From IMG/VR virus record IMGVR_UViG_2617270967_000014: DNA of 40,547 bases; one strand, 5' to 3'. Below, one piece after another: positions 30,001 through 33,000 of the stretch. Origin of the DNA: a virus (Duplodnaviria > Heunggongvirae > Uroviricota > Caudoviricetes). A program made the position numbers. Within the stretch, counting starts at the first letter, position 1. Every line of letters begins with the position of its first letter.

Positions 30001-33000
30001 CCCCTAGAATTTCGACTACCCGCTGGTGCAACACACCAAATTCCCCTTCGATTAACATGCAATCACCCATAACAATCAGCCTTTCCCCCTTGAAAATATC
30101 ACGCGGATACCACAAAAAATAAAATATTTTTGTTATCAGTCATTTATAACGTTTTTCATAAAATGATAAATATAGTTATTGCACAACCAGATAACTTAGG
30201 TTATCTTCAATTCAACAGCAGGACGCTGGAAGCCAAACGGAACAGATTGGCCGGCTCTTTAACATTGATGGACTCTCAACCTAACCGTTGAGACCAAAAT
30301 CTAAGTGGTTTTGGGGATGACGCGAATTTCAGTTGCAAGGCCGCGATCGAGAAGAAAAACACCTCGACGCGTCATACACCAAAGCCACTTAAAGGAGACC
30401 ATCATGGTAACCATAATCTGGAAAGAATCCAAAGGTACGGCAAAAAGCCGCTATAAAGCTCGCAGGGAAGAACTTATTGCAGAGCGGCGCAGTAGTGAAA
30501 GACTGACACGGAAGATTGCGCTAAAGATCTCTGGTTGCGTCGGAGCAGACAAAGCAGTATCACTCGGAAGCCTTCGCTGCAAGAAGGCAGAAGAAGTCGA
30601 GAGTAAACAGAACCGTATTTACTACCGCAAACCACGCAGTGAAATGGGTGTGACTTGCTCAGGCCGCCAGAAACAACGCGGAAAATCAATTCCGGCTTAT
30701 TACGATTGAGGTTAATGATGAAGTTCAAATTGAACGATGAAGTTAAATGGTCAAGCTCATCAAACGGTGTAACGAAGGTAAAAATCGGGTTTATCGTCGA
30801 GGTGATTCCTCCTGGTGTCAACGTAAAAAAATTCGAACTAGGCCGTCTGCTAGATGCACCTGGCCTTCCGAGGAAAGAAGAGAGCTATATAGTTTGTGTA
30901 GGTTCAAGACCCGGATCTCGTGCCAAGCCAAAATATTACTGGCCGCGAGTTAATAACCTGCGTCGATTACAACAAAAAACTTGCGCCCTTAAAACTTGAA
31001 ATTCTTCAGGCCGCCGGAAAAATGCAGCTTAAACTGGACGAATTCATCGACTGTATGGATGAAATGAATAAAGCAGTTCAGAAGCTTAAAGAGCTGACCG
31101 CCTGATATTAATAAATTGCAACTACCGGAGTTAACTATGAATGAAACAGAACTGAAGCACATTATCGCCCTGCTTCTGGAAGATGCCAGACAGGTTTATC
31201 GACTTAGCCCAAATTCCGCAACGCAGGAACGCATCCGGATAGCGGAAACAGCACTGAAACAGGACAATGGAAACGGCATATCCAAATTTAGCGCCGCCAG
31301 TGAAAATGAAGTAATAGAAATAAACAGCAATATCAGCGACAGTTGCGTCGCTTACAGCCACCAAATAATTCGTGTAAGTGCAAGAATAATGGAAGTGATG
31401 GCAAGTGAGCTTGAAAAGAACAACATCAAGCCCACTGATTGTTGTTTAAGAACCGTAATGAACGTTATTTATTACTCGATGTTCCGAAGTCGCTAACAGC
31501 GTCGAGTTTTTCATTAAAAAATGATTCAAATGCATCGTAAAATACGGCAATAGCACCGCCCTTATCTACCGCGGCAGGAACTGCCTTTTGAGGTATATCT
31601 TTCTCCGTAAATTGTGTGTTGTAAGTATCGACAGCCAGCCGCATCAGAAACATCACTTTTTCTTCTTGTGTCATAAATTCACTCTCCTTACGGGGTTTGT
31701 AGTTGAGGAGTTCTCCACGGGTGAGGTGGAGATCGTGCGCCGGACACGGGTGAGTTCCTGCACTCTCAGTTTACTGAACAGACATTACCCTGAAAGCCAG
31801 GGTACTACACGAAAGCGCGAGGCGAAGACTCTTTCCCATAGAAGGATTGTCGTTAGATTTCTTCGACCGTGCGCTTCCGGTTGTGAATAACAACATTGCT
31901 GTGTGTAACCCTTGGCGGATATCGGTTTGCCGATTGCTGATGTCCGCCCTTTTTAAAGTGAATTTTGTGATGCGGTGAATGCGGCTATGCGCACGCGGAA
32001 CAGTTAAACCGACAGGATGTCACGGAAAGTCATCGTCCCCTGACCCGGCGTTAGTTGTTAACTGGTTAACGTCACCTGGAGGCACCAGGCACCGCATCAA
32101 CAAAGTTCATTTGTGAAAATGGAGATAATTATGATTGCTCATCACTTCGGAACTGATGAAATACCACGTCAGTGCGTGACGCCTGGCGATTATGTTCTTC
32201 ATGAAGGTCGGACATATATCGCTTCAGCAAACAATATTGAAAAGAGAAAACTCTATATTCGTAACTTCACAACAAAAACATGCATTACCGACTGCATGAT
32301 TAAAGTTTTCATCGGGCGCGATGGCTTACCCGTAAAAGCAGCGTCGTTGTGACGAGTAATAAAATACCCCTTCCATATCTGTAACAGACAAGCCGAAATA
32401 AAACCGCATTAATTATCAATCACGGAAAAATCAAAATGAAAGAACTTGCGCAAAATGAAATATTTTCCAAAACCAGTCCTGATGCAATAAATGAACTCAA
32501 AGAAATTGCAGAACGCATCAGTAAAATATGCAAAGAATACAAAATCGACTTTGTATTTTCTTTTTCAGTGCTTACAGAAGTTGGAAATAACGAATATAAG
32601 GACAGTCGTTTTGTTTTATGTGGGTTAAATGGCAAAACACCAAGCCCATATATTCATGCTGCACGTGAAGTTGTCAGAAGCAACATTGGAGTACAACAAA
32701 TCCATACACTTGCACAGGCTCTTGAGTTTGCAAGAGAAAATTCTGAGTGCGACTGCCCTGAATGCCAGCACGAAAAGGGAAAAACAACTCACAAAACAGC
32801 AAACCAGGCAACCTTCCACTGAAATAAAAATCCGGCAGCGCAGGCTACCGGATTTCTCCCTGCGTCACCGTATTCGGAGAAATCAGACAAAGGGCCGCTA
32901 ATTCTAATCCAGCCAGAGGTTTAAATACAATGAGCGCTGATAAACAGACTTTTGCACTACACTGCGAAGCAAAAAACGATAAAGTCAGAAAACGCCTTGG

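Follow-up and report, generated by a model that had tools for sequence, protein, structure and literature searches.

The small RNA DicF (Rfam family RF00039), encoded by the dicBF locus of the Qin prophage of Escherichia coli K-12, is a proven trans-regulator, in which a 5′ seed is used for xylR and pykA and an ACUCCGU loop pairs with the ftsZ ribosome-binding site (PMC5069750). The 5′ end of a 190-nt DicF species from Qin is reported to be made by RNase III. In the defective Rac prophage of the same strain, KilS was predicted from Hfq RIL-seq (RNA interaction by ligation and sequencing) and verified by northern blotting; it has yncL as its reported partner and possibly a promoter of its own, a suggestion that rests on transcription-start data (Bar et al. 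2021, PMC8175672). RefSeq lists K-12 kilS (b4833) as a 98-nt non-coding RNA between sieB and kilR, made up of the Rac version of the hairpin and ~50 nt upstream of it, and NusG-dependent termination is reported to keep kilR off in K-12 Rac. Here we describe a related locus in the virus record IMGVR_UViG_2617270967_000014, the whole 40,547-nt stretch of which we call the window (coordinates are window positions, on the plus strand unless stated). Within its early-left (pL) operon, a stretch free of credible open reading frames (ORFs) is the non-coding dicF/kilS module of Escherichia/Shigella lambdoid prophages and lies 5′ of a small FtsZ-inhibitor gene. By covariance-model score, the RNA predicted within it is a divergent member of the already-named KilS family and not DicF. 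The parts of the locus are as follows.

31675..32130, plus strand: conserved non-coding dicF/kilS module in the pL operon (alignment with Qin)
31803..31822, plus strand: 5′ arm of a conserved long-range stem (RNAalifold consensus)
31867..31885, plus strand: 3′ arm of the same long-range stem, overlapping the 5′ end of the KilS-like RNA
31863..31954, plus strand: predicted KilS-family small RNA of ~81-92 nt (covariance model R1)
31885..31907, plus strand: A-rich linker GAAUAACAACA (three ARN triplets) and single-stranded motif, conserved in kil-linked variants
31914..31954, plus strand: intrinsic terminator, a 13-bp GC-rich hairpin followed by C and UUUUU (folding)
31955..32130, plus strand: structured kil leader (folding; consensus over 11 leaders)
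32131..32352, plus strand: kil, gene for a predicted KilR-type FtsZ inhibitor of 73 aa (NF008465; phrog_294)
32436..32822, plus strand: gene for an orphan protein of 128 aa (phrog_2016)

Direct alignment showed the window stretch to be collinear, end to end, with the ydfC-dicF-dicB spacer of K-12 Qin, the two having in common the upstream stem, the GGCGG/CCGCC terminator stem and the leader. A Qin segment of ~113 nt just upstream of mature DicF is missing from the window and also from Rac. Matches to portions of the stretch occur in 4641 of 5426 complete E. coli genomes, and the sequence 3′ of the T-run is ~85% identical to sites in thousands of them. The resemblance to the Qin dicF locus put forward in the original prediction is real and extends over the whole stretch, and the locus is a true homologue of its Qin counterpart. 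The accompanying claim of a GC-richer stretch without ORFs also held: over 456 nt (31675-32130) we found no credible ORF, and GC content is 0.50-0.53 over 31700-32100 as against 0.30-0.40 over 32100-32700.

Could the stretch instead encode an unannotated small protein? We consider this hardly credible. It holds only mechanical ORFs, between 30 and 100 aa in length, and those of 41-100 aa might speak for such a product, as might the partial match of one of them to phrog_24763. The remaining ORFs are without family support, no coding sequence is called here in the K-12 or FORC_069 annotation, and the stretch tolerates indels of ~113 nt and variable centres, its conservation tracking RNA helices. 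The ORF with the partial match (45 aa, 31979-32116, plus strand; residues 22-43, E=5.5e-10) and phrog_24763 itself are probably over-called ORFs on a conserved RNA leader. In Escherichia phage PhiR5_2 and the prophage of E. coli FORC_069 (98% and 100% identical to the window, respectively, around the locus), 31675-32130 carries no annotation (that of FORC_069 being from RefSeq/PGAP).

Rfam 15 has no KilS family, and scans of the Rac loci with it gave only DicF and STnc100 matches. The RNA was assigned with a covariance model, R1, for which 11 Rac-type KilS sequences were used and the window's lineage was left out. Its sole match in the window lies at 31863-31954, covers model positions 1-97 of 97 and scores 67.9 bits (E~1e-16); the same model gives 20.1 bits to K-12 DicF and 27.6 bits to a dicB-linked variant. 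Over 100 sources the R1 scores are bimodal, with KilS-type sequences at 67.9 bits or more and all others at 37 bits or less. In line with these scores, the window RNA has in common with Rac KilS its terminator stem and U-run, a 5′ body of the form GUGCGC(C/U)UCCGGUUGU(A/G)AAUAAC(G/A)ACAUUGCUGUGUGUA, and its position 5′ of the kilR gene: ~176-178 nt separate the U-run from the kil ATG in the window, compared with 176 nt between the 3′ end of K-12 KilS and kilR. Furthermore, the single-stranded motif UUGCUGUGUGUA at 31896-31907, a candidate seed, is retained by kil-linked variants whose loops are not alike; in both K-12 KilS and the window variant it is predicted to be complementary to GCACGCAGCA, just after the yncL stop codon. 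When we looked within the window for targets complementary to seed or loop, only the element itself was matched. The surroundings of the two RNAs differ. In Rac, kilR is followed by ydaE and racC, and in the window kil is followed by the orphan 128-aa gene; the window element resides in an apparently intact Stx-phage-like prophage, whereas K-12 KilS resides in the defective Rac.

Several observations weigh against this picture. The window lineage has the lowest R1 score of any KilS-type sequence (67.9 bits, compared with 90-124 bits) and is the most divergent, and in place of the ~19-nt U-rich loop of Rac KilS it has the shorter, unrelated UUGCCGAUU. Pairing of the seed with yncL could not be distinguished from chance. 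A promoter belonging to the RNA itself is doubtful, because the Rac extended -10 sequence TGTTAAATT found 5′ of KilS is replaced in the window by the Qin-like CGTTAGATT (TAGATT, with no TG), and our scan detected no sigma-70-like site upstream of the RNA's 5′ end. The upstream stem includes two non-pairs in the window and is thinly supported by covariation. Finally, northern and RIL-seq detection of KilS comes from K-12 only, and the window RNA is predicted.

The original prediction had suggested that this RNA could be a variant of the DicF family, to be checked by an Rfam scan, and had held that the lack of a DicF covariance-model match would speak against it. At gathering thresholds the Rfam scan of the whole window found no DicF, and a permissive scan placed RF00039 at 31900-31949 with 29.2 bits (E=6e-4), below its threshold of 48. 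The same model gives 76.7 bits to K-12 DicF, 43.5 to a dicB-linked variant whose 5′ part is canonical and 39.1 to Rac KilS of K-12, the last two also falling short of 48, so that reliance on this match was too strict. Because the Rfam model is narrow, the score of 29.2 bits is not evidence against homology. The likeness to Qin DicF is considerable, and includes the upstream stem (the RNase III site of Qin), the GGCGG/CCGCC terminator, the U-run, a leader of ~85% identity and a place 5′ of an FtsZ-inhibitor gene in a repressor-controlled operon. However, the window is without the ~113-nt insert, the DicF 5′ seed UUUCUGGUGACGUUU (with AACAUUGCUGUGUGUAACCCUU in its place) and the ACUCCGU ftsZ-antisense loop, and its downstream gene is kil, not dicB. 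What survives of the earlier claim is thus a homologous module, in which the RNA is of the KilS and not the DicF type.

We also weighed whether the window RNA might nonetheless act as a functional DicF orthologue, pairing with the ftsZ ribosome-binding region and, together with Kil, imposing a double block on division like that of DicF and DicB in Qin. The homology of the locus to dicF and the sub-threshold Rfam match (E=6e-4) would fit such a role, as would 16 bp between the 3′ arm and loop of the hairpin and ftsZ positions -29..-10, which include CCGAU:AUCGG beside the Shine-Dalgarno sequence (-19 to -19.5 kcal/mol). Whole-sequence RNAduplex comparisons with ftsZ and yncL gave long duplexes no better than those of shuffles. 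In windowed and loop-shuffle tests, canonical DicF pairs with the ftsZ leader at -26.7 kcal/mol (p ~0.04 against loop shuffles), the window variant at -19.5 kcal/mol (p = 0.24) and Rac KilS at -17.6 kcal/mol (p = 1.0); most of the complementarity that remains lies in a stem arm found in every variant. With the window pairing no better than that of shuffled loops, the DicF score at 29.2 against 48 bits, and both UUUCUGGUGACGUUU and the ACUCCGU loop absent, a DicF-like action on ftsZ is very unlikely, and we retain the assignment to KilS.

We then considered the structures that the module is predicted to form. The long GC-rich hairpin and T-run claimed at 31913-31957 correspond to a stem-loop at 31914-31948, with 13 bp and a 9-nt loop UUGCCGAUU, followed by C and a T-run at 31950-31954. 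The hairpin has a folding energy of -22.9 kcal/mol (z = -4.9), and none of 200 shuffles folds as well. Among 28 distinct family members the terminator stem is paired in 99.6% of cells, with little covariation, a pattern that is the expectation for a conserved terminator. Upstream of it, RNAalifold analysis of 20 diverse loci yielded a universally conserved long-range stem of 18 pairs, 16 of which form in the window; compensatory changes occur at four of the pairs, chiefly in the Rac lineage. A distance of 190 nt from the annotated 3′ terminus of DicF places the RNase III-made end of the long Qin species within the 3′ arm of the stem, from which we infer that 31803-31822/31867-31885 is an RNase III processing stem.

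Downstream of the terminator, the kil leader (minimum free energy z = -3.5) forms a closing helix of 21 bp, in which 31957-31977 pairs with 32090-32111, and has three hairpins inside it. This arrangement is conserved over 11 diverse leaders, and the kil Shine-Dalgarno sequence GGAG (32121-32124) comes directly after it. The leaders of both kil and dicB have the closing helix and the CACCUGGAGGCACCAGGCACC hairpin region of STnc100 (RF02076), to which four loci give weak but consistent matches of 31-35 bits. The window leader (31951-32145) scores 31 bits, and all of these fall below the gathering score of 47, unlike a true STnc100 elsewhere in the window (16844-17049, minus strand; 165 bits). 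These sequence matches hint at a shared ancestry of STnc100 and the kil/dicB leader types.

To survey the family, we scanned IMG/VR for exact matches to the invariant 23 nt after the U-run, which gave at least 120 loci; among the matches listed, 119 could be scored for the 5′ part against the downstream gene. DicF-type 5′ parts were followed by dicB in 70 of these and by kil in 2, and KilS-type 5′ parts by kil in 21 and by dicB in 1. The 5′ part thus predicts the downstream gene, DicF-type going with dicB and KilS-type with kil, with few mosaics. Across the IMG/VR matches listed, the window and the reference loci we counted ~35 distinct variants of the hairpin region. The mosaics include two loci in which a KilS-type 5′ part is combined with the DicF ACUCCGU loop. 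Another is Shigella phage 75/02 Stx (positions 1455-1545 of its own locus), which has a window-type hairpin preceded by a Qin-like pre-DicF flank, GUGACAACCCCGCUGCAAC..., and lacks the upstream stem; on its sequence this locus is clearly a recombinant within the module. Among GTDB species representatives, the KilS-type 5′ part is found in Escherichia and Shigella only, apart from two contigs of metagenome-assembled genomes. These two contigs are short and labelled Candidatus Nanosynbacter and Proteobacteria; they are most simply explained as E. coli prophage contamination of the bins.

Because of the ~35 hairpin variants, the mosaic loci and the presence of the window hairpin in Shigella phage 75/02 Stx, the module could be read as a recombining cassette in which seed and loop are shuffled independently to reach new host targets, with the window loop UUGCCGAUU as a second means of pairing with the ftsZ leader that arose independently. 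We consider this quite unlikely. Its extension, that a CCGAUU:AAUCGG pairing overlaps the first two bases of the Shine-Dalgarno sequence and gives a double block of FtsZ by RNA plus Kil, we hold to be just as speculative.

The two AT-rich genes reported downstream of the stretch, encoding 73 aa (32131-32352) and 128 aa (32436-32822), are both present. The 73-aa product matches NF008465 over residues 1-72 of 73 with 154.9 bits, well above the curated cut-off of 92, and is 92% identical to KilR (Rac Kil), from which it differs by six substitutions only; the gene is annotated as Kil in PhiR5_2 and FORC_069. On this homology the gene is kilR, encoding a known FtsZ inhibitor. To our knowledge, neither lambda Kil (47 aa) nor DicB is related to KilR. 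The suggestion that the locus may hold novel division-inhibitor or exclusion genes was partly right: one of the two genes would inhibit division, but it is the known kilR.

The 128-aa protein yielded less. Of the CxCPxC motif ascribed to it, CDCPEC does occur at residues 105-110, but the first cysteine is not conserved, while C107 and C110 are. We found 26 homologues, all in E. coli and of 58-100% identity, in which C32, H74, C107, C110 and H128 are invariant. Its AlphaFold model is all-helical, with the cysteine pair at the C-terminus and a moderate predicted local distance difference test (pLDDT) score of 67, and no informative structural neighbours of the model were found. A profile search of 1.84 billion representative proteins returned the same E. 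coli cluster and a single spurious repeat protein; no entry of Pfam, NCBIfam or PADLOC passed its cut-off, and a PDB sequence search gave nothing meaningful. No result of the profile, structure or defence-system searches links the protein to division inhibition or exclusion. Proteins encoded at this position in Rac and Qin (RacC, YdaE, YdfD and YnfU) were tried as identities and rejected: RacC gave no BLASTP alignment, the YnfU zinc-binding family scored 13.3 bits against a cut-off of 36, and tblastn finds ydaE, racC and ydfD in other loci only. In phiSTEC1589-Stx1c a small zinc-protein gene resembling ydaE separates kil from the 128-aa gene, and in Rac such a gene comes after kilR. The window has none, and its kil and 128-aa genes are separated by an 83-nt spacer only (32353-32435). 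A hairpin at 32829-32854, 3′ of the 128-aa gene, folds no better than shuffles (z = -0.98) and was discarded.

Taken together, a divergent KilS RNA, processed and terminated 5′ of a kil gene gated by N, is in our judgement very probably the overall explanation of the locus. In the absence of N, transcripts arriving from upstream would end at the intrinsic terminator at 31914-31954, leaving kil silent, and the long untranslated stretch probably adds Rho/NusG-dependent termination. The processing, Hfq binding and trans-action proposed below are carried over from the K-12 homologues. RNase III would cut the 18-bp stem (31803-31822 with 31867-31885), freeing the 5′ end of an RNA of ~81-92 nt, and an RNase E cut in the A/U-rich linker may follow. 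In this way the pL transcript would yield a KilS-type RNA by the same route as in Qin. This RNA is most likely bound by Hfq and would act in trans on host mRNAs through UUGCUGUGUGUA, not through a DicF-like ftsZ-antisense loop. Once N is present, the modified polymerase would pass the terminator and continue through the structured leader into kil, whose product would block FtsZ ring assembly, with the 128-aa gene, the RecE-N-terminal-like gene, gam, bet and exo coming after it.

A simpler account would be that the module works in cis only, a tL-type terminator together with a processing and leader structure gating kil, and the released RNA being a by-product with no role in trans. The conservation pattern is compatible with this account: conservation is highest in the terminator stem and the leader helices, the loop is hypervariable and covariation is slight, and pairing above chance was not shown for ftsZ, yncL or targets in the window. 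On the other hand, the K-12 homologue KilS is associated with Hfq and forms RIL-seq chimeras (PMC8175672), DicF, which belongs to this module too, is proven to regulate in trans, and the single-stranded UUGCUGUGUGUA has been kept among kil-linked variants despite their differing loops. We therefore regard a purely cis-acting module as unlikely, if the least implausible of the alternatives, and favour the release of a KilS-type RNA acting in trans.

At the 5′ edge, the module abuts the start codon of a gene on the opposite strand that was absent from the original prediction.

31465..31674, minus strand: hypothetical gene of 69 aa, with ATG and a strong AAGGAGAG Shine-Dalgarno sequence (phrog_2605, E=9e-45; PGAP coding sequence WP_000189938.1 in FORC_069)

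This gene is the module's neighbour, possibly a moron expressed in the lysogen. Of 110 loci, 47 have a reverse-oriented ORF with a Shine-Dalgarno sequence and a start 141-208 nt away from the stem anchor; these ORFs have at least 15 different N-termini and belong to many unrelated families, and sieB of Rac occupies the same place in the same orientation. Comparison of the 69-aa protein with the reverse ORF found in strain 350 revealed no similarity. This recurrence suggests that the 5′ edge of the module is a moron insertion site or holds a divergent promoter. It also raises the question of whether the 5′ half of the module (~31675-31860) is mainly the promoter and 5′ untranslated region of the 69-aa gene, which would explain its conservation, and for which the frequency of unrelated reverse ORFs at this distance and the placement of sieB could be cited. 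Nevertheless, no minus-strand sigma-70-like site reached the scan threshold, and a search by eye for a promoter of the 69-aa gene was also unconvincing. K-12 Qin, which lacks a reverse gene, has kept the same 5′-half sequence, in which the best-conserved blocks are the two arms of the plus-strand stem. We thus find this explanation rather unlikely, and take the conserved 5′ half to belong to the module.

The genes on either side fit the early-left setting that had been claimed for the stretch. On the plus strand the order is repressor gene, N-like antiterminator, small genes with no assigned function, then the non-coding stretch, kil and the 128-aa gene, followed 3′ by the RecE-N-terminal-like 690-aa gene and then gam, bet and exo; with the N-like gene upstream and gam/bet/exo downstream, the stretch sits in an N-dependent pL operon.

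30404-30709, plus strand: N-like antiterminator gene (phrog_271)
32930-35002, plus strand: 690-aa 'exodeoxyribonuclease VIII' gene (RecE profile match)

The 690-aa protein covers only positions 1-598 of the 877 of the RecE profile, with 740 bits against a cut-off of 1269, and because the match is partial the C-terminal nuclease domain is apparently missing. Next in order come lambda-type gam, bet and exo.

Elsewhere in the window, Rfam matches pointed to further non-coding RNAs.

16844-17049, minus strand: STnc100, full score 165 bits, above gathering score
20191-20389 and 21776-21974, minus strand: two tandem sets of C4 antisense RNA, isrK and c4-a1b1 target, above gathering scores
23838-24012, minus strand: sok antitoxin RNA, 110 bits
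3335-3420, plus strand: sRNA-Xcc1, 73.4 bits, above gathering score

The STnc100 match is placed between 17388-17921 (minus strand), which by eye we take to be a Q-type antiterminator gene, and 14712-16622 (minus strand), a 636-aa gene that is presumably esterase-like from its sequence; in Stx phages the stx genes occupy the late-leader position, like this STnc100. The tandem C4/isrK/c4-a1b1 sets look like a duplicated antirepressor control module in the style of P1/P7, and the sok match implies a putative hok/sok-type toxin-antitoxin locus in the prophage.

At the window locus, the small RNA family and the division inhibitor are both already known. Because a terminator-derived small RNA followed by a division inhibitor is expected biology, the surprise to specialists would be modest. 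For annotation, the Rfam DicF model misses most of the family, and a KilS model does not exist; in the searchable literature no paper mentions KilS and DicF together. An earlier survey found no matches to DicF or DicB in ~2000 phage genomes (PMC5069750). In contrast to that negative search, the module is present in complete phage genomes: KilS/DicF-type RNAs occur in the apparently complete, inducible-type phages PhiR5_2, phiSTEC1589-Stx1c, Shigella phages 75/02 Stx and POCJ13. A single mosaic module comprises both KilS and DicF as its two branches, and each branch is linked to an FtsZ-inhibitor protein of its own.

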